Of a stretch of DNA of 64,000 bases, positions 1,351-19,000 are shown piece by piece. Each line of letters starts with the position of its first letter. Positions within the stretch are counted from its first letter, which is position 1. This DNA comes from an uncultured Bacteroidales bacterium (GTDB lineage: Bacteria > Bacteroidota > Bacteroidia > Bacteroidales > Muribaculaceae). The notes beneath the pieces were generated by a model. The model had not been told where the DNA came from. It saw nothing but the letters and a program-made list of their open reading frames with translations, and searched no databases. The translations under genes were made by a program, and so were the position numbers. The stretch is from NCBI GenBank assembly GCA_900544535.1, contig UQVH01000001.1:682-64681 (forward strand), given 5' to 3'.

Positions 1351-3198
1351 TCACTTGTCAGGCACAATCTGCCACTTGAACACGCCGTCGGAGATGGCCT
1401 GCCACTTGTAGCCGGTATAGGGCACGAGGGCGCCATGGTCCACGGTAGGCTCGTTGTCATTGCCCGTGACCTGCTTGCCTTGGTCCTCGAAATATCCGCC
1501 CTTGAGCTGCAAGGTGCCGTGGTTGTCCACATAATATACATCAACCTTGCCCTCGGACCAGAAATAGCCTCCGTTCACCACCGCGCTGCCATCGCTGTCA
1601 GCCACATAGAGGGCGTAGAAATTGTCGCTTGAAGAGTATGACGGATGCGTATGGAAATAGCCGCCGTTGATGGTAATGTTGCCGGCGTATGCGCCTACGG
1701 CACCCTGCACGCCTTCCACCTCACCGCCGTTGATTACGATGTTGCAGTCCGGAGTGATAGCGCGAAGCGCATAAGAGAAATTTTGACCTACCTCAGGATC
1801 GGAGGAGCTGTTGGTAGACTTGATCTTGCCACCGTTCATGTTGAATTCACCTTCTACCCAAACGCCGCAATTGGCTGCGGTGACGGTGCCTCCGTTCATG
1901 GTCACGGTTCCACCCGGATTGACAGTGATGGCCGAACCACGCGTCTTGGTGGCGGTCACGAAATTCATGTCCTCCACGGTGAGAGAACCGTTCACATCTA
2001 CAATACGGTTGTCGCCGGAGAGAGTGCCGCCACCTCCGAGCGTGAGGTGAGCGCCTTGGGTCACGACGAAATTGGCAGTGTTCACCTGGCGAGCCGTGGT
2101 GACGGTGGTACCGGAAGGTATGTTGATGACCAGGTCCTTGTCGATGGTCACAACGCCGGACTCCGTAACGTCCACGTCATTGGCGAAATTGATGGCGTCG
2201 CCCGGCTTTGCCTGGGCTATGGCATTCACCAGCTGGTCGGCGGACGCTACCGAGAAGACGTTAACGTTGTAGTCATCCTCCTCATACGCGGGTTTGATGA
2301 TTACCTGCAGGTTGGCCGGGCTGGTGAGCAGCGAGCCGTAGATGTTCGTGCGGTAGTTGCGCTGCACGGGCACGTTGCTCACCGGCAGCGTCTGCGCGTT
2401 GGCCACCGTGCCGTCGTAGAACGTGAAGGTCGCGTCTATGACATCCTTGGACGAGGAGGTCAGGATGTAGTCCATCGAGATCCAGGTGTAAGGATTGGAC
2501 TCCCCGGGGTTCGGGTTGTAGGGGAACGACTCGCCGGAGGTGAGCGTGGCCGCCGCGTTGGCGAAGGTCACCGTCTGCTCGTCGCCGACAGTGCCGTCCG
2601 AGAGGTTCAGGGTGCCGTAGGCCGTCGTGCTCAGGCTAACGCCAAGGCCGTTCGCATAGGCCTTCTTCACGGCGTCGGTGGTCATGTCGTCCGTGCCCAG
2701 GTTCACCTGCGCGAAGGGGCGGCGAAGCTCCACGGTCTCGTTGATGGGGCCCGTAACGTCGAACACGCGCGAGGCGAAGAACGCGTCGCGGCTCTCGTCG
2801 GAGTTCGTCAGGCCCGTGTAGTCGACCTTGATGCTCTTGCTCTCCGGCTTGAACTCGTAGAACGTGTTGCCCGGGGCGTCCGCCCAGAACAGAAGCTCGT
2901 AGCTCTTGCCGTTAACCAGCTTCAGGTCAACGGTGGCCGTCAGAGTCGTGGGGTCGAAGCTCACCTGGTCCTCGCTCAGGGTCACCAGCTCGTCAGTGGC
3001 CTTGTCGTAGACCGCGTAGGTAAGCGTCGAGGCCGTAGTGCCGTCGGAGATGGCGCGCGTGCGCATCTGCTCCGGCAGCTTCACTGTGAAATGCACGTTG
3101 CCGTCGCCGGTGATTCCCGGCTCGTCAATCTCGCTCGAACAGGAGGCCGCGCCGAGCATAAGGGCGGCGGCGCCTGTCATCAATAAAAATTTGTTCAT
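1351..3198 (-). CDS. Fimbrillin-family (Mfa/FimA-like, type V pilus) lipoprotein, paralog A; C-terminal beta-helix-like NGG repeat region
   Basis: Start set at MNKFLLMTGAAALMLGAASCSS (lipobox LGAASC). The upstream part of the six-frame ORF is Arg-rich read-through. An Arg site (PEQMRTR|A..DG) lies ~29 aa after the lipid Cys, as at the FimA Rgp-cleavage site. The N-terminal ~300 aa are shared with paralogs B and C. The C-terminus carries repetitive G/N/T-rich beta-strand repeats. Confidence 0.6.
   Translation of the reverse strand: MNKFLLMTGAAALMLGAASCSSEIDEPGITGDGNVHFTVKLPEQMRTRAISDGTTASTLTYAVYDKATDELVTLSEDQVSFDPTTLTATVDLKLVNGKSYELLFWADAPGNTFYEFKPESKSIKVDYTGLTNSDESRDAFFASRVFDVTGPINETVELRRPFAQVNLGTDDMTTDAVKKAYANGLGVSLSTTAYGTLNLSDGTVGDEQTVTFANAAATLTSGESFPYNPNPGESNPYTWISMDYILTSSSKDVIDATFTFYDGTVANAQTLPVSNVPVQRNYRTNIYGSLLTSPANLQVIIKPAYEEDDYNVNVFSVASADQLVNAIAQAKPGDAINFANDVDVTESGVVTIDKDLVINIPSGTTVTTARQVNTANFVVTQGAHLTLGGGGTLSGDNRIVDVNGSLTVEDMNFVTATKTRGSAITVNPGGTVTMNGGTVTAANCGVWVEGEFNMNGGKIKSTNSSSDPEVGQNFSYALRAITPDCNIVINGGEVEGVQGAVGAYAGNITINGGYFHTHPSYSSSDNFYALYVADSDGSAVVNGGYFWSEGKVDVYYVDNHGTLQLKGGYFEDQGKQVTGNDNEPTVDHGALVPYTGYKWQAISDGVFKWQIVPDK
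2673..3172. repeat. Direct repeat copy 1: ~500 bp identical to 7818-8317 (5' coding module of paralog A)
   Basis: Nucleotide strings such as ggcgtcggtggtcatgtcgtccgtgcccaggttcacctgcgcgaaggggcggcgaagctccacggtctcgttgatgg...gccgttaaccagcttcaggtcaacggtggccgtcagagtcgtggggtcgaagctcacctgg occur identically at both loci. Identity falls to ~85-90% just outside this block. Confidence 0.8.
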
Positions 3199-3224
3199 AT
3201 ATGTATGTATTTTAAAAAATGTTG

Positions 3225-5945
3225 TCAGAAAGGATTGGCGTAATTGCTGGAGGCGGCGGGAGTCACGCCGGTGAGTTCGAACCAATGCTCGGTTACGCCC
3301 ACCTTCTTGTTGCCGCTTACGTTTATCACGGGACGGGCTCCGGAGTCGGATCCCTTGAACAGGATGCCCCACGGCTCTGAGCCGTCAAAGGCCACCATGT
3401 TTTGTGTATTGACAGTGTTGCCGGTCACCGTGAAAGTGTTGTCGGCGCTGAAGCCTACCACGCGTATGCCGTTCTCACCGGCAGAGATCATGTTGCCCGA
3501 CACGGTGACATCGGCATTGTAGTTCTGGACCTTGACACCGTCCTTCTTGGGGTTCACGATTGTGTTGCCGTTGATAAGGGTAGTGGCCGCTGCGTTGGCC
3601 GGAACCGCTCCGCTGGTGGCGGACATGACGAATACACCATGGTACGGGGCGTTGACTATGGTGTTGCCGGTCACAGTGAGCGGGCCGGAGAAGCCGAGCA
3701 GGTACAGGCCGTTGGCCGAGGTGACGGCCGATGGGGAGAAGGAGACGGTGTTGTCCTTGATGGTGACGTTGCCGTGGGCTCCTCCCGCCTGGAAGCTGAC
3801 AGCTGGCTCAATGAGGTTCGTCATGTTGCAGCCCTCGATTACCATGTTCTCGACTACTGTGCCGTTGGAATGGGCCATGTAGACGCCCTTGGTGTCGAGA
3901 TGGACTCCGGACAGGGTCACGTTGGTCATTTCCTTGGGCTGGTTGCCGATCTCAGTCACACGGAAGCCCACAAGCGGTTGGGAGGAAGTAGGCGTGCCCT
4001 TTATGGTAAGGTTGCGCACTGACTGGGTGGGATCCGCCACCCTGAATTGGGGGAAGGCCACGCCGTCGGCCACCTCTATGGTTATGGCCGTGGGGTTGGC
4101 CAGGGTGGTGCCTATGTTCATGGTGGTCACGGGGGCCATCAGCAGCAGGTTCAGGGGCTTGGCGGGGTTCAGGTCAGTAAGGTCCACGAGGTCCGTGGCC
4201 TCGGATATGGTGACGTTGCCGCCCGCCGCAAGCTGCGCGGCCAAGCCGCCGGCACGGTTGGCGTAGGTTATGGTCACGTTAGTGAAGGTATTGCCGGAAC
4301 CGGTGTTGCTGCCGTAGCCAAAGATCTCTCCGATATGTCCCTCTACCTTGCTGTCGTTCTCGGGCTTGTAGCCGTTCTCAAAGTCCTGAATGAGTGTCAC
4401 ATCCTCCACTGTACAGCCTGAGATGGGACCGCCATTGTTGCAATAACCGGCCACGCCGCCAATGTCGCGGTAGCCCTTGACGGTGGTGTTGCGCACCACG
4501 CAATCGGACACCTTGTCGCCACCGTCCATGTAGCCTACGATGCCGCCGACCTTGTCGCCGTTGTCATACTCTCCGTTGAACATCTCAGGGACGCTGACTA
4601 TGGTGAAGTCCTCTACGGTGCAGCCGGAGATTTCCATACCCACGTTTGAGGAGCTGTAGCCGCAAATGGCGCCTGCGTAATGGGTGGAGTTCACCTTGCC
4701 GCCCACCAGGTTGAGGTTCTTGACTTTGCCGGTGAGGGAGCCGAACAGACCGGCCGTGGCATAGGTGGTGCCGGAAGCGTTCGCGTTCAGGTTGTAGATG
4801 GTGTGGCCGTTGCCGTCGAATGTGCCGGAGAAAGTGATAGACGGGTACGACGCAACGTTGCCCGCCGGGGTCCAGGGCTTGCCGGCCAGGTCTATGTCGG
4901 AGGTGAGGGTCACGGTATAGCCGCTGTAGTGCGTGCCGCCGTTCACGGCCTGGGCGAAGCCGGCGAGCTGCGAGGCAGAGCTTACGGTGACTGTCTTGGC
5001 AGCGTCGTCGACCACGGGAGCCTCAGCCGAACCGTCCCATACGCTCAGGCCAGTGCCGCCGCCGAACTCGGAATCGATGGATATGTTCCAGTTTGTGGTG
5101 GAGCTGAGGAGCTGGCCGTAGAGGTTGGTGCGGAAATTGCGCTTCAGGGGCGCGTTGGGCACCTTCACCGTGTGCGCCGGGGTCTGCGAGGCCCCAGAGG
5201 TGTATGAGTTGATGGTCAGGTCAGACACCGAACCCTCGTCGCCCACAAGCATATAGGCCATGGAGAGGTAGCGGTACCCCCCTGCCACAGGGAAGGTCTC
5301 CTGCGCCGAGGCGGGGAGAGTGGCGGGAAGAGTCACCTGCACGGGATTGGCCGCGGAGCCGTCGGTGAGGTCGAGAGTGGTGCACGCCTCGGCGGTCACG
5401 GACGTGTAGACACCTTCCTGATAGGTGGTGGCCACGCTCGCGTTGTTGAGGTCCGAGGTGCCTATGTTGAGCTGGGCGCAGGGGCGGCTCAGCGTCACCG
5501 AGCGGGTGAGGGCTCCGTCAACCTTCACGCCGTTCTCTATGTAGAAGAATGCGTCGCCGTTGTCATTGTTACCGTTCATGCCGGCATAGTTCACGGTCAC
5601 GAGCCTTCCCTCGGCGCTGAAGGTGTACGGACTGTTGTCCGCCTCGGCCCAGAACACGAAGTCGTAAGTGCCGCCGCTGGCCAGGTCTATGTTCACGTTT
5701 GCCGCCTTGTCCGATAAGGTGGCGGAACCCTGGCTCACGAGCGCGCCATTCTGATAGACCGCATATTTCAGGTTCTTGGCCGTGGTGCCGTCGGCGAAGG
5801 CGCGTGTGCGCATACCCTCGGGCAGCTGCACGCTGAAATGCACGTTGCCGTCGCCGGAGACACCGGGCTGGTCAAGGTCGCTCGAGCAGGAGACCGCGCT
5901 TAGCATAAAGAGGGACACTCCTCCTAAGGTCAGTAATTTGTTCAT
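3225..5945 (-). CDS. Fimbrillin-family/tip-adhesin-like lipoprotein, paralog B, with GLUG-motif repeats and a C-terminal parallel beta-helix-like region
   Basis: MNKLLTLGGVSLFMLSAVSCSS lipoprotein signal. N-terminal domain ~50% identical to paralogs A/C (GDGNVHFSVQLPEGMRTRAFADGTTA...). Central GG(I/V)(V/A)GY repeats (GLUG-like). C-terminal NTIVN/TVSGN/TVTGNTV beta-helix repeats. Confidence 0.6.
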   Translation of the reverse strand: MNKLLTLGGVSLFMLSAVSCSSDLDQPGVSGDGNVHFSVQLPEGMRTRAFADGTTAKNLKYAVYQNGALVSQGSATLSDKAANVNIDLASGGTYDFVFWAEADNSPYTFSAEGRLVTVNYAGMNGNNDNGDAFFYIENGVKVDGALTRSVTLSRPCAQLNIGTSDLNNASVATTYQEGVYTSVTAEACTTLDLTDGSAANPVQVTLPATLPASAQETFPVAGGYRYLSMAYMLVGDEGSVSDLTINSYTSGASQTPAHTVKVPNAPLKRNFRTNLYGQLLSSTTNWNISIDSEFGGGTGLSVWDGSAEAPVVDDAAKTVTVSSASQLAGFAQAVNGGTHYSGYTVTLTSDIDLAGKPWTPAGNVASYPSITFSGTFDGNGHTIYNLNANASGTTYATAGLFGSLTGKVKNLNLVGGKVNSTHYAGAICGYSSSNVGMEISGCTVEDFTIVSVPEMFNGEYDNGDKVGGIVGYMDGGDKVSDCVVRNTTVKGYRDIGGVAGYCNNGGPISGCTVEDVTLIQDFENGYKPENDSKVEGHIGEIFGYGSNTGSGNTFTNVTITYANRAGGLAAQLAAGGNVTISEATDLVDLTDLNPAKPLNLLLMAPVTTMNIGTTLANPTAITIEVADGVAFPQFRVADPTQSVRNLTIKGTPTSSQPLVGFRVTEIGNQPKEMTNVTLSGVHLDTKGVYMAHSNGTVVENMVIEGCNMTNLIEPAVSFQAGGAHGNVTIKDNTVSFSPSAVTSANGLYLLGFSGPLTVTGNTIVNAPYHGVFVMSATSGAVPANAAATTLINGNTIVNPKKDGVKVQNYNADVTVSGNMISAGENGIRVVGFSADNTFTVTGNTVNTQNMVAFDGSEPWGILFKGSDSGARPVINVSGNKKVGVTEHWFELTGVTPAASSNYANPF

Positions 5946-6037
5946 GTCGGTAACGATTGGTTTAATATGTGATACTTGTTTGATTGGTGATGGAGCGGGT
6001 TGTCACGCCCGCCCCACCTGAGGGTACGTTTATATTG

Positions 6038-8341
6038 TTATTTCGTCCAGACACCGTTGCGGAAAGTCCACCTTCCTGTCTGACCCGGGAACTCGCTCCA
6101 GCTCGCTCCCTCGGCTATGGTGATAGTCACTCCGCTGGCCGTCTGCTTGTCGGGAGCGCCTATCAGCTCGCCACCTGCCACCGTGAGGTTGGAAATGGCG
6201 GTGGCTCCCTGGTTGCCCATGGTGCCTACGGACACCAGGCCGTCAGCGTAACCGTCGCCTGCGGGAATGGTTATCGTGGCCATCTTGGGGTCGTTGCCTG
6301 TGGTGACGTTGCCCACCTGGCGACCGGCGTATGTGGCCGTTATGGCAGCGGAGCCGCCGTGGCAGTTCACGAGAGTGGCTGTGGCCATGCGGCCTATCAC
6401 GCCGCCCGCCACGGAATTGCTTGCGGTGGCGGTCACGGCTGCGGTATTGTCGCAATCACTGACCGTTCCGGAACCGAGCGCTGCGGAGATACCGCCGGCT
6501 ATCATGACTCCGGTCACGGCCCCGCTGTTGGTGCAATAGCTGATGTCGGTCTGCTGGTACTGGCCGAGCGCGCCGAAGATGCCGCCAGCGTTCTGGCCCT
6601 TGACCGCGCCGCTGTTGGAGCAATGGCCTATGGAAAGCACCTCCTGTGACTGGTGGTAGCCCACTATGCCGCCTGCATAACGCTCGTTGCCGGTACCTAC
6701 GTTGCCCTGGTTGTCGCAATTCGTGACGGAGCCGCCCTTGCCTACATAGCCCAGGATGCCGCCTATGCCGTCCATGCCTCCGGTGAGGTCGCCGGTGTTG
6801 GTGCAGCCGCTTATCTCAGCACCGCCTATGCTGGTGATGCCGGCGATGCTGCCCACCTTCTTGGCTCCGGACACCGCGCCGCTGTTGGTGCAGCCGCTCA
6901 CCTTGTCGGACTGGCCGTACAGACGGCCCACTATGCCGCCGGCGGCCTGCCCGGCGTTGATGGCCACGCCGTTGTTGATGCAGTTCTCGATGGTGCCGCC
7001 CGCCAGGGTAACGCCCACGATGGCTCCGGCATAGTCCTCGGAGGAGACGCTGCCGCCCACTATCTCAACATTCTTCACCGTGCCGCCGCGCACCACGCTG
7101 AACAGGCCTGCTCCGTAGTTGTCGCCGGTGGCCGTCACGTTCAGGTTCATGATCTGATGGCCGGCGCCGTCGAAAGTGCCGGAGAAACCGCCGGTGGAGC
7201 TTGAACGTGCTATGTCGCCTATCGGAGTCCAAGGATGGCCGGCCAGGTCAAGGTCGTCTGCCAGAGTCACCGTATATCCGTCAAACGTGTTGCCGCCGTT
7301 CACCAGCTTGGCAAGGCCGGCGAGCTGCGAGGGAAGGTTCACGGTCACCGTCTTGGCCACATCGTCTATGACGGGGGAGGTGGCCGTAACGCCGTCCCAT
7401 ATCTCCATGAGGTAGTCGTCCTCCTCATATCCGGGAACGATGACTATCTGCAGGTTCGCCGGGCTGGTGAGCAGGGAGCCGTAGATGTTCGTGCGGTAGT
7501 TGCGCTGTACCGGCACGTTGCTCACAGGCAGCGTCTGAGTGTTGGCCACAGTGCCGTTCCAGAAAGTGAACTCAGTGTCGATAACCTGTTTTTCAGACGA
7601 AGTCAGGATGTAATCCATGGAAATCCAAGTGTATGGATTGTTCTGGGAGGGATTCGGGTTGTAGGGGAATGTCTCGCCGGAGGTGAGGGTGGCGAGAGCG
7701 TTGGCGAAGATCACCGTCTGCTCATCGTCGACCGTGCCGTCCGAGAGGTTCAGCGTACCGTAGGCTGTGGTGCTAAGGCTAACGCCCATCCCTGCCGCAT
7801 ATGCCTTCTGCACGGCGTCGGTGGTCATGTCGTCCGTGCCCAGGTTCACCTGCGCGAAGGGGCGGCGAAGCTCCACGGTCTCGTTGATGGGGCCCGTAAC
7901 GTCGAACACGCGCGAGGCGAAGAACGCGTCGCGGCTCTCGTCGGAGTTCGTCAGGCCCGTGTAGTCGACCTTGATGCTCTTGCTCTCCGGCTTGAACTCG
8001 TAGAACGTGTTGCCCGGGGCGTCCGCCCAGAACAGAAGCTCGTAGCTCTTGCCGTTAACCAGCTTCAGGTCAACGGTGGCCGTCAGAGTCGTGGGGTCGA
8101 AGCTCACCTGGTCCTCGCTCAGGGTCACCAGCTCGTCAGTGGCCTTGTCGTAGACCGCGTAGGTAAGCGTCGAGGCCGTAGTGCCGTCGGAGATGGCGCG
8201 CGTGCGCATCTGCTCCGGCAGCTTCACTGTGAAATGCACGTTGCCGTCGCCGGTGATTCCCGGCTCGTCAATCTCGCTCGAACAGGAGGCTGCGCCGAGC
8301 ATAAGGGCGGCAGCGCCTGTGCATAGGAGGATTTTCTTCAT
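6038..8341 (-). CDS. Fimbrillin-family/tip-adhesin-like lipoprotein, paralog C, with GLUG-motif repeats
   Basis: MKKILLCTGAAALMLGAASCSS lipoprotein signal. First ~300 aa nearly identical to paralog A. C-terminal part is rich in AGGIVG/GGILGY/AGGISAA GLUG-type repeats and CxNxG turns. Confidence 0.6.
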   Translation of the reverse strand: MKKILLCTGAAALMLGAASCSSEIDEPGITGDGNVHFTVKLPEQMRTRAISDGTTASTLTYAVYDKATDELVTLSEDQVSFDPTTLTATVDLKLVNGKSYELLFWADAPGNTFYEFKPESKSIKVDYTGLTNSDESRDAFFASRVFDVTGPINETVELRRPFAQVNLGTDDMTTDAVQKAYAAGMGVSLSTTAYGTLNLSDGTVDDEQTVIFANALATLTSGETFPYNPNPSQNNPYTWISMDYILTSSEKQVIDTEFTFWNGTVANTQTLPVSNVPVQRNYRTNIYGSLLTSPANLQIVIVPGYEEDDYLMEIWDGVTATSPVIDDVAKTVTVNLPSQLAGLAKLVNGGNTFDGYTVTLADDLDLAGHPWTPIGDIARSSSTGGFSGTFDGAGHQIMNLNVTATGDNYGAGLFSVVRGGTVKNVEIVGGSVSSEDYAGAIVGVTLAGGTIENCINNGVAINAGQAAGGIVGRLYGQSDKVSGCTNSGAVSGAKKVGSIAGITSIGGAEISGCTNTGDLTGGMDGIGGILGYVGKGGSVTNCDNQGNVGTGNERYAGGIVGYHQSQEVLSIGHCSNSGAVKGQNAGGIFGALGQYQQTDISYCTNSGAVTGVMIAGGISAALGSGTVSDCDNTAAVTATASNSVAGGVIGRMATATLVNCHGGSAAITATYAGRQVGNVTTGNDPKMATITIPAGDGYADGLVSVGTMGNQGATAISNLTVAGGELIGAPDKQTASGVTITIAEGASWSEFPGQTGRWTFRNGVWTK
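7818..8317. repeat. Direct repeat copy 2: ~500 bp identical to 2673-3172 (5' coding module of paralog C)
   Basis: See copy 1. The overlapping antisense ORFs at 3038..3274 and 8181..8387 translate identically, which confirms nucleotide identity. Confidence 0.8.
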
Positions 8342-8379: not shown

Positions 8380-9405
8380 TTACTTAATCTCGATATTGAA
8401 ATCACCGTCAAAACCCGGATTGATGCCGATACCTCCGTGCGCCTGCGAGGTGAGAAACTCACCCCTGACTATGGTGGCGCGGCCTCGCTCCACGGGGATG
8501 GTGAGCGAGGGAACCGACGATACAAGCTTGCCCTCAGGATCGTAGATGTCTATGGCCACGTTCACACTCGACTCGGCTCCGTTGATGAAGAAATAGTCGA
8601 AGCCCACGAGCACCTCGTCGTTGTTGATAATCTGCATGGCACCGGAAAACGATACGCCGGTGGCGGAGTCTATGGGACGGTTGCGGAATATGCTGTACTC
8701 CACCGGGAGGAACACCGGATAACGCAACACAGCCTTGTAACTGTTGAAATCGATGGCAGGCGCCTGCGACACGTCTGAACTCTCGGTGCTTTTGCGGCGC
8801 GTCTCCTGCTCTATGAACTCGGCCAAATCTGTGGATAGGAAAGCGTATGCGGTGAGCGGTCTCTTGAGCGTGACGTCGAACTCCACGTCCACCAACTCGT
8901 CCACCGACGAGGGCACCGAGGCATGGAACATCCCCTGAAAAGCGTCCTTCAGCTCGCTGTCCCCACGGTACGGGGTCAGCAGCTTTATGGAGGAGAAGAT
9001 GTCCGCGTCGTAGAACAGGCTGCGCTCCGTGGAGGAGTCTATGAAGTCGCTCCATACGTACACGTCATATTCCCCGGCCGGCAGATCGATGCGTGTGGTG
9101 AAGTCCGCCAGAGTGACATCGCTCCTCACCTCTGTGTAGCGTGCCACCGGGACCTCGGTGGTGCCTGCGGGGTACACCTCGTATATGTAGCGTACCGCGA
9201 CGCCGTTCCACACGGAAGGAGCCTCCGCACCAGAACCGTCGCGCGTGTTGTAATAGAAATCGAAGAGTCGCCAGGGCAGCTCGTGGCGCACCACAAGGCG
9301 CGCGCCGCGCATGGCGGGAGGCTCAGGCCACTCATGCACGCATGAGGAAAAGCCGAGCGCCAGCAATACGGCAAGGCATACCATAGTCACAATACGGCGC
9401 ATCAT
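8380..9405 (-). CDS. Lipoprotein, putative FimB/Mfa2-like pilus anchor/accessory subunit
   Basis: Lipobox LGFSSC. About 340 aa. Sits between the DUF3575 gene and the fimbrillin paralogs, as in Bacteroidales Mfa-type operons. ATGA start/stop overlap with the upstream gene at 9402-9405. Confidence 0.4.
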   Translation of the reverse strand: MMRRIVTMVCLAVLLALGFSSCVHEWPEPPAMRGARLVVRHELPWRLFDFYYNTRDGSGAEAPSVWNGVAVRYIYEVYPAGTTEVPVARYTEVRSDVTLADFTTRIDLPAGEYDVYVWSDFIDSSTERSLFYDADIFSSIKLLTPYRGDSELKDAFQGMFHASVPSSVDELVDVEFDVTLKRPLTAYAFLSTDLAEFIEQETRRKSTESSDVSQAPAIDFNSYKAVLRYPVFLPVEYSIFRNRPIDSATGVSFSGAMQIINNDEVLVGFDYFFINGAESSVNVAIDIYDPEGKLVSSVPSLTIPVERGRATIVRGEFLTSQAHGGIGINPGFDGDFNIEIK

Positions 9406-10646
9406 CTCTCACCTCCTTTCTTCTTGCCAAGGTCAAAGAGGTAACTGATGGTGAACGTGGCCTGGTCTATCCCGTAGAAGGTGCGCTGCCTGCGCCCCAC
9501 CAGCAGCCCGTCGGCATGGTTCTGGAACAGGTCGTAGTCCAGCTTGTAGACCCCGAAACCGAGCGAGGCCTCCATCTGCCAGCGGCGGTTGCGGCAGAAA
9601 TGGAAGCGGTAGCCCGCCGCCAAGCCGCCGCCCACGGCAGGGGTGCGCTTCAAGTGGTCCTGGTAACGGTACTCGCCTCCGAAGGCCACGTTGTACCACC
9701 CAAGCCCGAAATGCGCACCGGCGAAGAAACCGGCGTTGTCCTTGCGAGGCCACCACCGGAACTCCGGCTGGAACGCCAGGGTGCGGAACTTGGTGTGGCC
9801 CGTGAAATAATTGAGGCCTGAGTAATAGACAGGCAACGTGAAACTCCAATGAGGGGCCAAGTCCACCTCGACCGCTATGTTGGACCACAGCATGGCCCAC
9901 GCCGGTATGTTGGTCTTGAGATACAGGTGTCGCACCCATCCGGTATCGGAGGTGCCTGGCACTACATCCGCACTCGGAGCCTCCGCTTCCGGCTCGGGAT
10001 TGTCCGTCACCACGGTGCGCGGTTCCTCACCCGGCGACATCGTGGTAGAGAACACCTGGTCCGCCACCAGGTCCACCACGGCAGACCGCTGCAGCGGCAG
10101 CACCTTGTCAGCAAGCCATTTCCACGCCTCGCCGCCGTTTATGCCGCGCAGGGTGGCCTGTATCTCGTCGTGCGTGCCGCCTCGGCGTATGGTCTGAAGC
10201 ACCGGGGCGCGATAGGGAGACACGAGATTGTCGGCGAGTATGAGGGAGTCCACATCCTGCCAGGTGCAGACACGCCATGAGGTGCTCATGAGCCGGGACG
10301 GTACAGCGGTATGGGATTCGAGCCATGAGGCTATCGCATGGGCACGCGCGTCGGCCAGCTCGGCATTGAGCCTCGAGGGGCCCTCTGCGGAAGCATAGGC
10401 CCTGACCTTGACCTTGCGCAGTTCGGACAGGGACATGAGCGAGTCAGCCCTTGCGCCTATCTGGCGCAAGGCCGGTGCCAAAGGGGCTATTCCTGACTCG
10501 CCACATTCGAAATGGGGAGTCGGAACGGTGATGAGCTGCACGGAATCGGCTCTCTGCGGCGACGCCACAGACGGCATGCCGCACGCCAATGCCAACAGCA
10601 TGATACAAAGATGTTTCACAGTCCTGTATGGGTATGACGAGAACAC
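9402..10646 (-). CDS. DUF3575-family outer-membrane protein; first gene of the pilus operon
   Basis: The C-terminal half (LKTNIPAWAMLWSNIAVEVDLAPHWSFTLPVYYSGLNYF...LAFQPEFRWW...GAHFGLGWYNV) matches the DUF3575 beta-barrel-like signature that typically precedes Mfa-like fimbrial genes. N-terminal signal sequence present. Confidence 0.5.
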   Translation of the reverse strand: MFSSYPYRTVKHLCIMLLALACGMPSVASPQRADSVQLITVPTPHFECGESGIAPLAPALRQIGARADSLMSLSELRKVKVRAYASAEGPSRLNAELADARAHAIASWLESHTAVPSRLMSTSWRVCTWQDVDSLILADNLVSPYRAPVLQTIRRGGTHDEIQATLRGINGGEAWKWLADKVLPLQRSAVVDLVADQVFSTTMSPGEEPRTVVTDNPEPEAEAPSADVVPGTSDTGWVRHLYLKTNIPAWAMLWSNIAVEVDLAPHWSFTLPVYYSGLNYFTGHTKFRTLAFQPEFRWWPRKDNAGFFAGAHFGLGWYNVAFGGEYRYQDHLKRTPAVGGGLAAGYRFHFCRNRRWQMEASLGFGVYKLDYDLFQNHADGLLVGRRQRTFYGIDQATFTISYLFDLGKKKGGER

Positions 10647-10960
10647 GGCAACCCCGATAAGGGGCGGTGTTCTTATTTTTTAATAAGTTACGGTAAACTG
10701 TCCAGACACGTGGACTTTCACGGTAGACGACATCCTGCTCTGAGGACTTGTCGGAAGAGGTGGTCGACACGACGGCTGTCGGCGTTGATGATTTATGTCT
10801 GTCAGAAGCCAAGACAATAGGCATGAGTTCACGGTATGAAATCAGGCGCGAGGAGAGACTTCCTTCAGGTTTGATACATAAAAATTTCAAGCCGGAGGCC
10901 GCAGTGCCAATAAACGGCCTCCACTACAATGTTTTTAAGTGCATTACAGTTCAGTTGCGG

Positions 10961-10968
10961 TGCAAAGT
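10961..10968 (-). promoter_or_regulatory. Candidate Bacteroidetes -7 box (TAACTTTG on the minus strand) for the pilus operon, with a ~300-nt leader
   Basis: Plus strand reads caaagtta; the reverse complement matches the TAnnTTTG consensus. Confidence 0.3.
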
Positions 10969-11086
10969 TAACTAAAAATCCGGATATAACACGGACAACC
11001 TGAGTCAATGCCACTAAAATTAAACATTTTTAATATTCCCCCCCGATTTCATTTATTTTTAACACTCTTTAACACATGGGCGCGAC

Positions 11087-12721
11087 TCATGCTTTTTCCG
11101 GTTCTTCGGCTCGGGCAAGCTCTTCTTCCGGGGGGAGCATGAACACGCCACGTATGGTCCGCCGCAATTCCCCCGAGAAGCCGTCACGACATTTCAGCGC
11201 CCCCAGGACTCCGCTTATATACGCGTCCTTGTTTTTGTAGCCCAGGAGCGTGGCCACCTGCGAGTCGGAAAGCATGGGCTTGTAATTGAACACGCGAAGC
11301 ACGGCCCCATAATCCCTGGCCCGGACTATGCTCCGGAACTCTTGCATCAGGCTCTCGTAATGGGTCCGCACATCTATTATGTCAGGCAGGGAGCGCAGAT
11401 GCCGTTCCAGCTCGTCTATGGTGCGCACGCGGGCGTCGCCCCGGCACTCGAGCAGCCGCTTCATGCGGTGACGCACATGCTGAAGCACCTGCTCGCGGAA
11501 ATGCGACTCGAACATCTTCAGCACCGAGTTGCGCACCTTGGAGACGACCTTCTCGGGATTCCTGCCTCGCTTGCGGGCCATGATGCTTATCACTCCCTCC
11601 ATCATGAATATGTTCTCGATCTCGGCCACCTCCGGCACCATCACATTCTTGCGCCGGAGATAGGCCACCTCCTCGTCGCTGCGGCGGTCCCGGTCCACAA
11701 TGCCGTAGCTGTCCAGATGATGGATCTGCTTCATGTCGCAAAACGAGCGGGTGGCCTCTATGACCTTGTTGCACGAGCCGAGCGGCCGCACGCTGTGGAA
11801 CGGGAACACAAGCGGATAGAGCTTGGCGTCGATGCTGTGGGTAGAGTCACCCTCTATGAACAGCACCGGCCTGCGGGTGCCCAACAGGCAGGCGGTGAGG
11901 TCGTCCGGCATGGAGCCGGGCGGCAACACCTCATAGTCCCACGCCTGCGCCGTCGTGTCCTGGGACTTTACCCAGATTATCACATTCTCGGTGCGTGAGT
12001 TCATGAACTCCACATCCGACGAATTGTATACAAACGTGCAGTCGGGACGCAGGCCCTCCACGGCGTTCCACACCACATGAAGCATGGCCGGATGCAGGAA
12101 CAGGCCCGGATTGTCCACGAATATGACACCCTCCTGCGGGGCATACAGCGCGGCGGCTATGTAATACAGCACAGTCTTCTCGGACGAGGACAGCTTGCTC
12201 GTAGAGATGAGGTCCGGCCCCCCGGGAGTCGAGAAGAGCAGTGTGCCTTGCTCGCGCATCACGGTGTTGTCAGGGAATATCTCCTGCCATATCCTCACCA
12301 GCGCGTCGAGCTTCGTAGGCTCCAGCCTCATGCGCCGCCCCTCAATCAAACTCTCCCCCTTCACTGACAGCAGATAGCGGAACTCGTCCTGGAACAGCAT
12401 TATGCCCAGGCGGTCCAGGTCCGTGGCAGGCTCGCCGCCTCCAAGATGCGAGGCGCGTTCCCTGTACAGGGACTCGACACTCCCGCCCGGCTCACAGCTG
12501 ATGGCGCCCAAAGCTGACACAGTGAAAGCTTTCGGTCCGAAAGCCTCCATGAGAGCGTACATGAACCGGGACTTGCCGGCGCCGGCGCCGCCGACTATGG
12601 CTATCTGCCGACTATGGGGAAACGAATCCGGGGCGTTCCCGTCCACACGAGGGGGCAACTTTATTTCATCCATGGCACAGAGAATTGATTCAGCCGTAAA
12701 GTTACAAAAAAAATCACACAA
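11087..12721 (-). CDS. OLD-family-like ABC-type ATPase fused to a DUF4435/Toprim-like domain; likely true start at MDEIK (12674)
   Basis: Walker A IVGGAGAGKS. ABC/OLD signature-like KLSSSEK. Walker B followed by LHP (VIFVDNPGLFLHP; DN instead of the canonical DE). C-terminal PVLFIEGDS...YGIVDRD resembles a Toprim E...DxD. An A8 tract at 12707-12714 lies upstream of the MDEIK start. Confidence 0.5.
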   Translation of the reverse strand: MCDFFCNFTAESILCAMDEIKLPPRVDGNAPDSFPHSRQIAIVGGAGAGKSRFMYALMEAFGPKAFTVSALGAISCEPGGSVESLYRERASHLGGGEPATDLDRLGIMLFQDEFRYLLSVKGESLIEGRRMRLEPTKLDALVRIWQEIFPDNTVMREQGTLLFSTPGGPDLISTSKLSSSEKTVLYYIAAALYAPQEGVIFVDNPGLFLHPAMLHVVWNAVEGLRPDCTFVYNSSDVEFMNSRTENVIIWVKSQDTTAQAWDYEVLPPGSMPDDLTACLLGTRRPVLFIEGDSTHSIDAKLYPLVFPFHSVRPLGSCNKVIEATRSFCDMKQIHHLDSYGIVDRDRRSDEEVAYLRRKNVMVPEVAEIENIFMMEGVISIMARKRGRNPEKVVSKVRNSVLKMFESHFREQVLQHVRHRMKRLLECRGDARVRTIDELERHLRSLPDIIDVRTHYESLMQEFRSIVRARDYGAVLRVFNYKPMLSDSQVATLLGYKNKDAYISGVLGALKCRDGFSGELRRTIRGVFMLPPEEELARAEEPEKA

Positions 12722-12906: not shown

Positions 12907-13806
12907 TCACAGCCAGGCGTTCTGGCGCTCGCGAACCGCAAGGGAATCACTGAGAAGGCGGATGAACTCCTGCATGGCCCGCTTGCGATAGGTCCCGCGA
13001 AGGGTGTGGACACACCCGGCCATCTCGTTGCCCGGGAAATCGAGGGGCACGGCCACCACTCCCCTCTCGTTGTGGATGGTGGCCTCGGCAAGCACAGACA
13101 CCAGCGATGTCTGACGTATTATCTTCAGCAAGATGTTGACCTCGTTCATCTCGATCTTTATGCGGAAATCGAGCCCCGGAATCGATATGCCGTCAAAGGC
13201 GGCCCGGGCCTGCAGCCCTTGGGAAGGGAGCGCCAGGTCGCATGCCGCCAGCTCGCTTAGGGTCAGGCTTTTCCTGGCGGCCAACGGATGATTTTCCCTC
13301 ACGATGGCGGCCAGATAGTTCTGGAACAGGATATGTGACTCGATATCGGGCAGCGGGCAGGTCGGCCGGAAGGCGAGCACGAAATCGGCCTTGCGCGTGC
13401 GGAGCATGTCCATAAGCTCCGCCATGGGCTTGTAGTGGATGTTCAGCTTGATGTCCGGATATTGCCTGCGAAATGTGATTATGGTCTCTGTGAGGATAGG
13501 ACTGAACGAATACGTGACGCCGATATTCAGTGTCCCGGTCCTCATGTTCGTGATGTCGGCTATGCGCGTCAGGCACTGGTCGGTGTCCTGGAGCGTGAGC
13601 CGGGCATAGGGAAGCATCTCGCGCCCTGTCTCGGTGAGGGAAACACTGTGGCTGTTACGTATGAAAAGCATAGTGCCCAGCTCCCCTTCCAGCTGCTTCA
13701 CCTGTTGTGAGAGCGTGCTTTGGGTCACGCACATCAGCTTGGCAGCCTCCGAGAAACTGAGCGTCTCGGCCACGCTCACGAAATATTTGAGTTGGCGTAG
13801 TTCCAT
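12907..13806 (-). CDS. LysR-family transcriptional regulator
   Basis: N-terminal HTH MELRQLKYFVSVAETLSFSEAAKLMCVTQSTLSQQVKQLE, followed by a LysR substrate-binding domain. Confidence 0.85.
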   Translation of the reverse strand: MELRQLKYFVSVAETLSFSEAAKLMCVTQSTLSQQVKQLEGELGTMLFIRNSHSVSLTETGREMLPYARLTLQDTDQCLTRIADITNMRTGTLNIGVTYSFSPILTETIITFRRQYPDIKLNIHYKPMAELMDMLRTRKADFVLAFRPTCPLPDIESHILFQNYLAAIVRENHPLAARKSLTLSELAACDLALPSQGLQARAAFDGISIPGLDFRIKIEMNEVNILLKIIRQTSLVSVLAEATIHNERGVVAVPLDFPGNEMAGCVHTLRGTYRKRAMQEFIRLLSDSLAVRERQNAWL

Positions 13807-14356: not shown

Positions 14357-15172
14357 TCAGAACATCCCGACCTGCATAAGCAGCATGGCGGCGCACAGGC
14401 CTCCCGAGAGGCAGCAGGTCATGACCACGGCATCGGCAAAGCGGCTGAAGGCGCATATATAATGCCTGTACAGCATGTCGCTGAACGAATTGAGGAACGG
14501 GATTCCCGGCACCAAATACAGGACGCTGGTGGCCAAGGCTGTCTGCGGTGTCCGGCTCAGCGGGAACAGCAGCCCCGTGCTTCCGAGAACGGCAGACACG
14601 AAAGCGCACACGAACCATATCACCCTGGCATCCACTTTCATGCGTGCCAGGCGACCTTTGAACCACAAGCCTGCCAAGGTGGCGAGGAACACGACAGCCA
14701 TGGCCATGAGATCCCCGCCGAAGAGGCGGCAGAACGCAGCGTTGGCACACGAGGCGAGGGGCAGCATGAGAGGGGACATCGCCTCCTTCTGGGCCTCGCG
14801 CATACGCTCGAGCGCCAAGGCGTAGTCCACATCCCCGTCGGCTATTTCCCAGCTCAGGCGGCTGAGAGACGTGTTGACCTCGTAGCTTATGGGCGAAACG
14901 CTCGTGGCAACGACAGACGTGACACATTCATCATGCCGCATATCCCTTACGCTCAGATGTATATGACGAGGCATAATGCTCATGTCCACCTCCACACGCC
15001 ACGCCGCCGCTATCCGGCTCACGTTTTTCTCCATCCGCACGCATGTGGCCCCGCACCCCAGCAGCAAGGCGCAATACTCGCCCAGGAAGGCCGATACCCG
15101 TGCCACATCAGGTGTTCTCATCATCATGGCTTCCATTGTCCAAGCCGGGCATACGCCGGTCTCCCGGCACAT
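14357..15172 (-). CDS. Threonine/serine exporter family protein, ThrE N-terminal half (DUF1212-like); start may be at MEAMMM (15136)
   Basis: Cytoplasmic N-terminal domain followed by TM helices. Paired with the downstream DUF3815 gene. Confidence 0.65.
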   Translation of the reverse strand: MCRETGVCPAWTMEAMMMRTPDVARVSAFLGEYCALLLGCGATCVRMEKNVSRIAAAWRVEVDMSIMPRHIHLSVRDMRHDECVTSVVATSVSPISYEVNTSLSRLSWEIADGDVDYALALERMREAQKEAMSPLMLPLASCANAAFCRLFGGDLMAMAVVFLATLAGLWFKGRLARMKVDARVIWFVCAFVSAVLGSTGLLFPLSRTPQTALATSVLYLVPGIPFLNSFSDMLYRHYICAFSRFADAVVMTCCLSGGLCAAMLLMQVGMF

Positions 15173-15542
15173 AAAATTCCTCCGCCTGGTCTCCGAGTGA
15201 GAAAATAGAGCGCCACCATTTTAATCTGGAGGCCAACGCACGCGCCAGCACGATTGCCGGCATCAGAAAGGACAGACCCGCCACGACACCCCATGTAATC
15301 CAGGAGATGACCGATACCGTGTGTAAAAGTATACTCATGTCAGTCACAATTTTAATTACGGTGCAAAGTTAGGAGCAATCCCCCTCTCGAAGGTTGCGCG
15401 GCCTACGAAATATACGATAGCGGCTATCGGCTTATGTCAACAAGTACTTTAAGCCGGAGACACGATGCAGCGGAGCCAGCGGAGAAATAATCCCTGTCTT
15501 GATTTTTCTCCGGTCATTACATGAATCTCAGATTTTTGTTGT

Positions 15543-15550
15543 AATTTTGC
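15543..15550 (+). promoter_or_regulatory. -7 box TAATTTTG, promoter for the riboswitch-led transcript
   Basis: Matches TAnnTTTG about 40 nt upstream of the riboswitch core. Confidence 0.4.
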
Positions 15551-15589
15551 AGCGCTGCCGGTGGCATTTCCGCCGGCAGATGCGTTGCA

Positions 15590-15830
15590 GGAGAGGCATC
15601 GCGCCGGACGGCTCCAGGGCCGTCCAGGGAACCGGGTGAGAATCCCGGACAGACCCGCTACTGTAAGTCCGCCAAGGCTCCGCGGAGGGAATGAGAATCG
15701 TTCCTCACCTCCACAGCGCCAACATGGCAACAGCTTCACGGCAATTTTTTATGGTCACTGCAAAAGCCCCCTTGCGAGGGCTGCGGGAAGGCCGCCGCGA
15801 AAGCCGGATAAGTCAGGAAACCTGCCGAAA
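15590..15830 (+). ncRNA. Cobalamin (B12) riboswitch
   Basis: Conserved core elements in the canonical order: AGGGAACCGGGTGAGAATCCCGGACAGACCCGCTACTGTAAG (15617-15658), GGTCACTGC...CGGGAAGGC (15750-15792) and the B12-box AAGTCAGGAAACCTGCC (15809-15826). This tracks E. coli btuB AGGGAAtCCaGTGcgAATCtgGaGCTGAC...CACTG...GGGAAG...GACCTGCC. Confidence 0.7.
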
Positions 15831-16068
15831 CAGACATCCCCCTGATTGCAGCTTTCGTGGACTAAAGCCGGCAACATCACTTTCACAAGCCCCTCCCGCC
15901 CCGCAGACCTCCGGATCTCTTCGTGCGGGCGGCCGCATGCACAGACGCCCTGATAAGGCTCTGCGGCGCACGACCGCCATTGGTTGCTTCCGATGCCGTC
16001 ACCCCGACTATCTGTAAAATCACGGATGTCAGAGTGGCGACCGTTTTTTATTAACCAATATCAATCAC

Positions 16069-19000
16069 ATGAAGATCAAATCTTTACTTCCTCTTTCCCT
16101 GACGCTGTTTGCCGCAGGGTGGGCTTCGGCTACCGACGTCACCGTGACGCTCAACACGACAAGCAAGGCGATGACATTCACCCCGGTTGCGGGCGGCGAG
16201 GCCGTGAACACCGGCGAACCGTCGACAGCATCCAGCCCGGTCTACAAATTCAGCTGCGATCCGGGCGACTATCTCGTCAGCCTCACCGATGCCGCCGGGG
16301 TTCCGACAGGCTCGATCGTGCTGACCGTCGAAGGCGAGTCGCAGAGCACCCGTATCTACAATGTCACTTTCTATGCGGCCAACAAGACCGACGGCGTAGA
16401 GTGGAAGCTCGGCACCGACTATGACATACCCTTCGATCGTATCAGCATCTCAGCCCAAAAAGGAGGCGCCCGCACCGTCACTCCGGTGAAATACACCACC
16501 TCCGCCCGCACAAGCGTGACCGTCCCCGCCCTTCAGGGCGACACCTATCAGGCTGTCTTCATCCCGCTCGGAGCAAATGCGGAAACCAACGCTCCAAGCA
16601 CCCAGAGCGGTACGGTAACGGGCAACCGATCTGTCTCCTGCACTCTGCCCGCTTACGTGAAATTCTCGCTGACAGCACCGAAAGACGCTGCTGTTGTCGT
16701 GGCCGAGAAACCCGGTTCGCGCCACTATGTCCCCTTCACCGAGTATGACCCCGTCTCAGCCATCGAATCGGGCAATGACATGGTCTATACTTACAGTCTG
16801 CCTCAGTCAAGCAACTACAACTACCGTGTATCGCGCAAAGGCAGCATCACCACAGCCGGAATTTTCGATCCCTCGAAGGGCGACATCACTGTCAGCGAAG
16901 CCGAGCTGAGCGCCTATACCTCGGATTATTACAATCACGACGTAACTGCCAACAGCGGCTACAACTATGCCGACATCTATCTCAACATCAATCCGCAGGG
17001 CCATCTTTTCATGAAGCCCGACGGAGAGTTTCACCTCGTCAACCTGCGCACATGGCAGCTGACCAACAGCGTGACAGCCAACTATTTCCTTGAACCTGAC
17101 TATCATTACACTGTGCTCAACACCGAATTCAAGCCCGACAACTCAGTGGTTGAGATCAGCGAAAAAGGTTTGCTGAAAGCCAAATCGGAGGGCACGGCCA
17201 TCGTGCAGGTGCATTACGATGCCATGAACGCCGAACTTGCAGGCGGTAAGCTCTGGAGCTGTATATGGGCCGAAAACGTCGGTACATTCGTCGTCACCGT
17301 AGGCGACAAGGCCGAGGGGATCAAGAGCAACATGAAGCTCCCCTACGAACAGCCCAACCGCACGGGCGAGATCGACGCCGAACATGATATTTTCTATTAT
17401 CCCGAAGGCGGCGACGGTTTCGACTTCACTTTCACCCCCGAAGGCGTATCGGCTGTGACAGTAGCCAATCCCTCGGTCGATCTCACTGCCAACACCCTCT
17501 CCTACCCCGACGGATTCTCGGCCAAAAACGTCACCAAGAACGCTGACGGCTCATATACGGTACATCTGACCTATGGCCGCAATATCGTCTGCCTGACTGA
17601 CGGCGCAGGCAAGAGCATCTATCAGGTAATGTCGGCCAAGCCCGTAAGCTATACTTACGGTCAGGAGATCCGCAATGACAAATATATCCTCCCCGGCGAC
17701 AAAGTTGTCGTGAACTACAAGGGTCTCTATCACGATGCAGGCAAACTTGCAGCCATCTACAACCAGGGGTGTACTCCGCAATATACCACAATTCCCGAAG
17801 GCTACGACAGCAAGAGTGTGGCAGGTTCAGGAGGACAGTATAATTTCGCCGCCCTGCAAAAGACCACCGTTACTCTCAAACCCGACCAGAAAGCAGGCAA
17901 ATTCGAACTCCGCGACGGACGTCTGACATTCGGCGGTTTCGGCGACAAACTCGGCGGCCACCGCGACATCGACTATCTGACGGGCCGCAACCCCAACTTC
18001 ACCGCTTCGGCACAAAGCCAGCTCGCGGGTGTGATCCCCGACATCTCGTTTGATACCGACGACTTCACTGACGGCATGGAGCTTTCCCTGCGCCTCGAAT
18101 ACGGCAAAAACGCCACTCCGGTGTCATTGGCCGCAGCCAAAGTGTTTCTCGGCGATGATATGACCATCACAAGCTCCGATGAAAAGGTGGCTACCGTGGA
18201 CGCCAACGGCAAGGTCGTTGCTGTCAAGGACGGCACGACAGTCATCACCTATTCAAGCGCCGCGGGCGACAAGAAATTCACCTGCAAAGTTGAAGTCTGG
18301 AGCGTCAAGGTCGAGGGAATCGCATTCAAAGATCCGGTATTTGAGGCCAAGGCATCGGCAACAGGTTACTCATCCATCAATCTCGGAGTGGTATGGACTC
18401 CGGCCAACGCGTCCAACAAAAATGTGACCTACAAGCTCTCCAACCCCGATGTCGTCGAACTGCGCGACGGAAGATATTTCTATACCCTCAAAGGGGTTGC
18501 CGGAGAAACCGAAGTGACGGCAACATCCGAGGACGGAGGCTATACAGCCTCATGCCGACTGATAGTCCGCATGAGCCTCAACAAACTTTCGCTTGACAAA
18601 TCCGAGGCCACTCTGACCGTCGGCGAGACTCTGACCCTCAATCCGGTGTACAAGCCTGAAAACACCGATCCGAAGTTCAGGGGCGTCATCTGGACTTCGA
18701 GCGATCCGAAAGTGGCAAACGTGGATGAAAACGGTCTTGTGACCGCTCTTGCAGAAGGTACAGCGACCATTCAGGCTACATCCGACCAAAGCTCTTACAA
18801 ATATGCCCGCGCCACCGTCACCGTGGTCAAGGACGAATCGGGTATCAAGAACGTCAGCACCGCCACGGTTGTCAAGGCCTGGCCGAACCCGTTCACCGAT
18901 TATATTATGGTGGAAAGCCCAGTGGCTGCTACCGCAGAGGTCTACAATCTCCAGGGCGCGCTGCTGATCAGCACCGGGATCGAGGCCGGACAGAACCGCA

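Follow-up and report, generated by a model that had tools for sequence, protein, structure and literature searches.

A near-identical pilin-module tract in two tandem DUF6562 genes of a Muribaculaceae bacterium, probably left by gene conversion within the operon

In the type V pili of Bacteroidia, such as the Fim and Mfa pili of Porphyromonas gingivalis, the pilins are marked by a lipobox cysteine, an N-terminal anchor strand and an arginine cleavage site in the β1–β2 loop, which lies between R46 and A47 in FimA and between R49 and A50 in Mfa1 (PMC13655056). Some P. gingivalis strains carry the tip-pilin genes mfa5-1 and mfa5-2 in tandem, with one half of the protein conserved and the other varying by genotype; in Mfa5, the conserved half is C-terminal and bears a sorting domain of the type IX secretion system (T9SS), and the variable half is N-terminal (PMC8313007). 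Here we describe a predicted operon of an uncultured Bacteroidales bacterium of the Muribaculaceae, found in a 64,000-nucleotide stretch of contig UQVH01000001.1 (assembly GCA_900544535.1, positions 682 to 64,681 of the forward strand), which we call the window. The operon holds three long tandem paralogues of the DUF6562 family, genes A, B and C, together with a short paralogue, D, and a DUF3575 gene, E. Genes A and C share an almost identical tract in the part that encodes their N-terminal pilin module. We consider this tract to be, in all probability, the product of a recent ectopic gene conversion of about 510 bp within the operon, as part of an ongoing concerted evolution of the module.

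The mfa5-1/mfa5-2 pair is the nearest described type V case, since it also places tandem accessory or tip pilin paralogues in one type V locus (PMC8313007). In our operon, however, the constant part is N-terminal and the heads are C-terminal, and that study describes no gene conversion in the mfa5 pair (PMC8313007). As in the Fim and Mfa pilins (PMC13655056), the module has a lipobox cysteine and two transthyretin-like β-sandwich domains, and its anchor strand is followed by arginine in the β1–β2 loop (here R46 and R48, the latter preceding A49). A separate subunit that lacks the conserved arginine is common to both, and is represented here by the anchor-like D. On the other hand, a FimA/Mfa1-type stalk gene is not recognisable in this operon, which starts with a DUF3575 protein, and its arginine-bearing subunits, instead of finishing with a donor strand, continue in β-helix or GLUG extensions of 300–600 amino acids (aa). 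Polymerisation and cleavage at the present locus are putative.

Other surface-protein systems share single aspects of this arrangement. The babA, babB and sabA genes of Helicobacter pylori, which are dispersed in the chromosome, undergo RecA-type non-reciprocal recombination between paralogues with near-identical ends and a differing functional region, giving mosaic profiles; conversion there moves the variable region and alters expression or binding. Our locus resembles them in the mosaic conversion of paralogues, but its paralogues are adjacent in one operon and it is the constant module that is homogenised. The Neisseria pilE/pilS system has one expressed locus and silent truncated cassettes, and variable segments are transferred with a dedicated initiator. 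It likewise combines pilin genes with conversion, but its type IV pilin is unrelated, and our locus shows neither silent truncated cassettes beside a single expressed locus, nor a dedicated initiator, nor the transfer of variable segments. Constant N-termini with diverse C-terminal modules in tandem, among which recombination at the constant segment can exchange heads, recall the Rhs and CdiA proteins. The orphan modules of Rhs and CdiA have no start and no export signal, keep a short stub of the constant region, and encode toxins accompanied by immunity genes. In our operon, by contrast, all genes are complete, and their heads belong to the β-helix and GLUG types rather than being toxins with immunity genes. 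A shufflon or an invertible promoter is not matched either: the repeats are direct, and no recombinase lies nearby.

The tract shared by genes A and C

A base-by-base comparison at an offset of 5143 nt revealed that positions 2668–3147 in A and 7811–8290 in C are identical over 480 nt. The complete tract of 510 nt (Table 1) is 99.6% identical, with two mismatches, at 3148 and 3169, both of which are synonymous. The copies are in direct orientation, 5143 nt apart, and no third copy was found in the 64-kb window. The tract covers the core of the signal peptide and the entire first β-sandwich domain, and it ends in the short helix between the two domains.

The tract is a near-identical stretch between diverged homologous flanks, as is expected after conversion. 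On its gene-3′ side, A and C remain homologous without gaps for a further 399 nt, at 82% identity (72 mismatches). On its gene-5′ side, the first seven codons (MNKFLLM versus MKKILLC) differ at 10 of 21 nt; the AT-rich intergenic spacers 5′ of the two genes are unrelated to each other. Beyond positions 2269 and 7412, the C-terminal halves of A and C showed no similarity at the DNA or protein level.

The contrast extends to the silent sites. According to the Nei–Gojobori method, applied to the ungapped codon alignment of A and C, codons 8–177 have a synonymous divergence (dS) of 0.016 and a nonsynonymous divergence (dN) of 0, corresponding to two synonymous differences. Codons 178–310, beside the tract, have a dS of 0.59 and a dN of 0.12, equal in both halves of this segment. 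Silent-site divergence is thus about 37-fold lower in the tract than beside it, and a constraint acting at the protein level is therefore ruled out. In the 930-column alignment of A and C, 84 columns are mismatched and identity is unbroken over at most 480 columns, while the maximum in 20,000 shuffles was 131. A run of at least 480 nt was obtained in 0/20,000 shuffles, with an analytic expectation of about 1e-17, and a chance origin is excluded.

These measurements refine the initial annotation, which had described a 100% identical block of about 500 bp. The repeat is real, but its second coordinate was 2 nt off: positions 2673–3172 are 23.6% identical to 7818–8317 and 99.6% identical to 7816–8315, the register with the offset of 5143. 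The exact match is 480 nt long, and the adjoining identity is slightly lower than the 85–90% that had been assigned to it. The C-terminal halves had rightly been called unrelated, and the recent gene conversion that had been read from the sharp boundary agrees with the drop in dS and with the diverged homologous sequence on both sides.

Gene B carries a more distant version of the module, with 39% protein identity and 58% nucleotide identity to A and C. A patch of this version is closer to A and C than the rest (Table 1); its dS is 0.41, compared with 0.92 elsewhere in the B module, and the remainder of the module is 54% identical to A and C. The patch could represent an earlier conversion tract that has since decayed, or simply the segment of the module under the strongest constraint, with the signal peptide, the anchor strand and the Arg loop.

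Homologues and related loci

A search of 5.8 billion proteins yielded 1005 homologues of the module, the best of which is only 44–45% identical at the amino acid level. The closest genome found is the Muribaculaceae metagenome-assembled genome (MAG) RGIG9146, which has the same E-D-...-typA synteny as the window, with 93% identity in TypA and 63–66% amino acid identity in the module. Proteins A and C have no exact-sequence database record, and no close relative was found in single-protein scans of genome and metagenome contigs or with a wobble-tolerant DNA pattern of the tract in metagenome contigs. Because the best homologues are at about 45% identity, and at 63–66% in one MAG, the identity of the tract reflects recent homogenisation and not family conservation. 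The possibility that the block is conserved in all homologues, which had been raised earlier, is thereby excluded.

The RGIG9146 assembly breaks within the pilin N-module, at a contig end (L009, 10001–10552) and a contig start (L013, 1–534). The same 141 nt (residues 139–185), which lie close to the end of the window's tract, are found on both contigs as an exact overlap. The break suggests a repeat-induced branch of the assembly graph, and hidden paralogues in RGIG9146.

We compared the window with 84 related loci, consisting of 77 from a profile scan with one genome per species and 7 from metagenomes. Of the 84, 32 have two or more module matches, with 2–5 in each; a few of these matches are incomplete and lie where a contig ends. 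In 39 of the 58 loci with enough flank, the first long paralogue is immediately preceded by E-like and D-like genes. Where neighbours were compared in L012, L039, L073, L069, L029, L027 and L036, their DNA homology is limited to the N-module of about 850–900 nt. Exact runs between tandem N-modules reach 876, 713, 495, 488, 317, 293, 257, 191 and 177 nt, and the run-length permutation gave 0/5000 for 13 pairs. As in the window, silent sites separate tract from surroundings, with dS values inside and outside the tract of 0 versus 1.45 in L039, 0 versus 0.48 in L069, 0 versus 0.31 in L073 and 0 versus 0.38 in L012. The Muribaculum locus L039 is a near-replica of the window: its module is 83% identical, and the exact tract occupies nt 16–510. 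The position of the tract varies between genomes and is often internal to the module (256–743 in L073, 130–422 in L069, 499–631 in L029), as expected for conversion patches. Altogether, at least 12 assemblies, made independently in different projects, contain the mosaic pattern.

Concerted evolution was tested on three syntenic loci, L027, L029 and L037. The flanks of these loci are 82–92% identical, and the genes L027_2, L029_3 and L037_4 carry orthologous heads, with 84–90% identity over 473 aa. Their N-modules are 94% and 92% identical to those of in-genome neighbours with unrelated heads, but only 81–86% identical to each other. The N-modules in these loci undergo concerted evolution, the paralogues being closer than the orthologues.

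The arrays also differ in size between syntenic loci, with three paralogues in L027, four in L029 and at least five in L037, and with three in L069 versus two in L043. A 3.2-kb duplication in L037 (10014–13241 versus 14834–18061, 97% identical) comprises all of gene 1 and the N-module of gene 2, and ends in N-modules. In L037 the heads follow the order a,b,a,d,e, compared with a,b′,d,e in the syntenic L029 and with b,d,e in L027, evidence that the modules have recombined unequally. Since syntenic arrays differ in size and the L037 duplication ends in N-modules, N-module repeats mediate the gain and loss of whole genes. This agrees with the earlier proposal that the repeats could mediate deletion or duplication, the homology being limited to the N-module. 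In the window, deletion between the repeats, over 5143 bp, would simply fuse the first codons of C to A, with loss of the C and B heads. The initial annotation had gone on to suggest cassette exchange and antigenic variation. That part stands in so far as the repeats drive duplication and deletion in the family; programmed switching is unsupported, because the genes are complete and co-oriented in one operon, without silent cassettes, a recombinase or an invertible promoter.

Heads similar to those of the window occur elsewhere on quite different N-modules, the A-type head in P0121 and P0123 (47–52% identical) and the B-type head in L012_2 (37%). A candidate head swap between strains, L001 versus L004 (539 versus 429 aa), was rejected as a truncated gene beside an insertion of about 2 kb. 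These two metagenome loci are otherwise 97–99% identical. The insertion (L004, 11706–13714) follows the long DUF6562 gene. It carries an ArdA-like open reading frame (ORF) in L005, and it repeats 192 nt of the sequence that lies upstream of the DUF3575 gene. Bacteroidales-type pilin genes were also found on short contigs in records labelled as Firmicutes or Actinobacteria, namely L038 and L060 (Roseburia faecis bins), L059 (Agathobaculum), L061 (Senegalimassilia) and L048 (Clostridium sp.). Bin contamination, rather than horizontal transfer, is the most likely explanation for these records.

Origin of the tract

In the mechanism that we propose, the N-modules of A and C, adjacent and already similar, would have engaged in homologous recombination of the RecA type, presumably dependent on RecA. 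The segment for the signal-peptide core and the first β-sandwich domain would have been copied from one of the two genes into the other. The copying would have erased the silent-site differences in the tract, and left the second domain about 18% diverged. Across many genomes of the Bacteroidales, the N-modules of such arrays are repeatedly made uniform patch by patch, while their heads remain distinct, and the arrays grow and shrink via unequal recombination between N-modules.

Several points weigh against this account. The identity of the tract rests on a single assembly, and the 5′ edge of the tract is only seven codons from the limit of homology, hence the second flank is weak. Gene B lies between A and C and has the same D, but is only 39% identical, and homogenisation is thus evidently not required for function; it may be a neutral by-product of proximity. 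Moreover, the run-length permutation ignores uneven constraint along the gene, which affects the assessment of runs of some 50 nt and has no bearing on one of 480 nt.

The two-level identity profile could also have been produced in the reverse manner, by a very recent duplication of the N-module, after which one copy received, through recombination, a new 3′ part and head from a diverged allele or paralogue of a different strain or locus. Modules do recombine, as is seen from the same-type heads on different N-modules in other taxa, and the array content varies between syntenic loci. However, the first seven codons are strongly diverged too. The tract is therefore internal, and a simple remnant of duplication would not be expected to have this form. 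The tracts of other genomes are often internal as well (L073, L069 and L029), giving the classical picture of conversion patches, and the window contains no second copy of B or other scar of duplication. We therefore regard such a replacement as unlikely. An assembly artefact, in which similar copies were given one consensus path by repeat smoothing or collapse, appears less likely still, even though an exact repeat of 480 nt is longer than the usual k-mer sizes and the RGIG9146 assembly breaks in the same module, with an exact overlap of 141 nt. A direct repeat of the form U-R-X-R-V has only one linear path that uses all segments, and the gene order is thus genuine. Smoothing would need copies that were near-identical already, and these would still contrast with the adjoining 82%; furthermore, two differences were kept inside the tract, and the same mosaic is present in the independent assemblies described above.

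A further explanation dispenses with recombination, and invokes purifying selection at the nucleotide level, for example on an embedded regulatory RNA or promoter. Nothing specific speaks for it, although at the protein level the family is most strongly conserved in the 5′ part of the module. Gene B, in the same operon, has a nucleotide identity of about 58%, homologues elsewhere are 45–66% identical at the protein level, and identical tracts occur at other module positions in other genomes. Such selection is thus highly improbable, and gene conversion between A and C remains the reading that we favour.

Predicted operon, protein fold and proposed surface display

The features of the operon are listed in Table 1. 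Genes A, B and C are arranged head-to-tail on the minus strand. E and D overlap by 4 nt, and the spacers measure 38 nt between D and C, 92 nt between C and B, and 26 nt between B and A. This layout fits a single predicted operon, E-D-C-B-A. None of the three long genes is truncated: an ATG, a signal peptide and a lipobox are present in each. The start of A is the ATG at 3198. The mechanical ORF runs 58 codons further upstream to a GTG at 3372 (3199–3372, minus strand), overlapping the end of B; the ATG was taken as the real start because of the homology to C and the signal peptide.

Table 1. Coordinates of the operon and of the A/C repeat in the window
Feature	Position	Strand	Description
Terminator-like hairpin and T-run	1294–1313	−	Directly after the A stop codon; consensus match only; probable operon end
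Gene A, 615 aa	1351–3198	−	Lipoprotein: DUF6562 pilin module (aa 1–~315) and 300-aa right-handed β-helix-like head
Diverged remainder of A pilin module, second β-sandwich domain	2269–2667	−	82% versus 7412–7810
Probable conversion tract, A copy	2668–3177	−	Codons 8–177: signal-peptide core, lipobox Cys20, anchor strand, Arg46/Arg48 loop, first β-sandwich domain
Gene B, 906 aa	3225–5945	−	DUF6562 module, GLUG-type region in common with C, and Pfam Beta_helix
B patch close to A/C	5755–5908	−	154 nt, codons ~13–63, 79–81% identical
Gene C, 767 aa	6038–8341	−	DUF6562 module and GLUG-repeat head
Diverged remainder of C pilin module	7412–7810	−	82% versus 2269–2667
Probable conversion tract, C copy	7811–8320	−	Direct repeat of A copy
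Gene D, 341 aa	8380–9405	−	Short DUF6562 lipoprotein (E-value 5e-70)
Gene E, 414 aa	9402–10646	−	DUF3575 and sub-threshold OmpA-like match; first operon gene
Intergenic region upstream of E	10647–11086	−	AT-richer, GC content 0.49; presumed promoter region

A typA fragment adjoins A in convergent orientation. The 414-aa ORFs at 19–1263 and 9402–10646 were considered as inverted copies flanking the array, and this was rejected, as they encode the unrelated TypA and DUF3575 proteins. No site-specific recombinase was found near the operon, where the upstream genes are of the DUF4435/AAA and LysR types, and an invertible promoter upstream of E was not supported, with weak inverted repeats only. 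The gene adjoining the promoter region (11087–12721, minus strand) encodes a 544-aa DUF4435 protein with a sub-threshold match to AAA-type ATPases, possibly a defence-type ATPase, and beyond it lies a LysR regulator (12907–13806). Another large surface or secreted protein, of 1002 aa, is encoded at 16069–19077 (plus strand); its domains are Ig-like ones of the Big_2 type and a C-terminal T9SS sorting domain (Por_Secre_tail). A full-length recA is located at 19418–20629 (plus strand), about 9 kb from the array. The organism thus has the recombinase needed for the proposed mechanism; the proximity of recA to the array is almost certainly a coincidence of housekeeping gene position.

All four DUF6562 proteins score above the 25-bit gathering threshold of Pfam PF20200 (A 60.8, B 34.1, C 54.4 and D 236.7 bits). 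The NCBIfam model of the Mfa1-family major subunit, NF038041, matches only C, in the signal-peptide region and with 21.7 bits, far below the cut-off of 130 bits. Other Pfam matches are Beta_helix in B and the GLUG motif in C. The lipoboxes end in MNKFLLMTGAAALMLGAASC in A, ...FMLSAVSC in B, ...LMLGAASC in C and ...LALGFSSC in D, and C20 is invariant in the 35-sequence alignment of the module. An AlphaFold (AF2) model built from this alignment (predicted local distance difference test score, pLDDT, 83; predicted TM-score 0.78) is all-β, with two β-sandwich blocks (34–169 and 185–314). When the model was compared with the PDB by Foldseek, 22 of the 23 matches with E ≤ 3e-5 were Bacteroidales type V pilins or 'putative adhesins', including 3up6, 3ufi, 3r4r, 3gf8, 4qdg, 4rdb, 3pay, 4gpv, 4k4k, 3sy6, Mfa4 (5dhm), 3t2l and 4h40; the odd one is a leucine-rich-repeat protein, 4ecn. 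The first 20 ranks have E-values of 7e-11 to 6e-6 and TM-scores of 0.40–0.50. The description of A, B and C as three tandem fimbrillin paralogues, made in the initial annotation, is thus supported at the level of the modelled fold, and DUF6562 is present in all three.

In the module, the anchor strand (34–40) is followed by PEQMRTR, ending in R48 before A49, in the β1–β2 loop, and R48 is kept in at least 90% of relatives. A, B and C run on for 300–600 aa past the pilin fold, so that the last strands of the fold are internal. This continuation would be compatible with a tip-like position. Residues ~300–514 of C are similar to B, and the two proteins are 42.6% identical over 533 aa, N-module included. 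In the D family, as seen in 51 homologues from related loci, the lipobox is followed by a conserved CVHEFP, and no conserved Arg occurs in the corresponding stretch. The conserved C-terminus of the family, which in D has the strand ...GINPGFDGDFNIEIK, stops exactly at the end of the pilin fold, at the last strands. From these features we infer that D is an anchor-pilin-like partner and that A, B and C are tip-like display subunits. In this arrangement, A, B and C would be cleaved at Arg48 and accept the C-terminal strand of D, with their heads displayed at the surface.

The head of A is modelled as a right-handed β-helix-like solenoid with a pLDDT of 92, and its predicted fold class is clear. 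A fold search with this head returned weak β-helix matches, the best with an E-value of 0.06 (PL6 lyases, the L. reuteri SRRP adhesin and phage tailspikes). PDB sequence searches with the three C-terminal heads gave chance-level matches only, for example antibody light chains, with E > 0.005.

To conclude, tandem paralogues of surface proteins are well known to undergo gene conversion, and the tract described here is a fairly ordinary case of it in an uncharacterised family. In the literature searched, no paper mentioned DUF6562 in its full text and none joined gene conversion with type V pili, and the papers on DUF3575 merely list the protein. The window provides a clean and quantifiable silent-site contrast for this Bacteroidales family. 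The mosaic pattern and the changes in array size recur in Muribaculaceae, Alistipes, Porphyromonadaceae-type and other gut MAGs, and they point to a general route by which the surface heads carried on a constant, pilin-like handle are diversified in gut Bacteroidales. Near-identical modules also break short-read assemblies. Because the locus of the closest relative is split exactly at the module, arrays of this type are probably under-counted in metagenome catalogues.

A speculative and rather doubtful extension of these findings would be that DUF3575–DUF6562 operons encode a minimal 'socket-and-plug' type V pilus. In it D, as one lipid-anchored subunit, would donate its C-terminal strand to whichever Arg-cleaved pilin module is available (A, B or C), and each of these modules would present its own β-helix or GLUG head at the cell surface. 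Patchy conversion of the N-modules would then keep the plugs compatible with this single socket, and unequal recombination would shuffle, add and remove heads. If true, this would be a recombination-driven, modular form of surface display, widespread in gut Bacteroidales.

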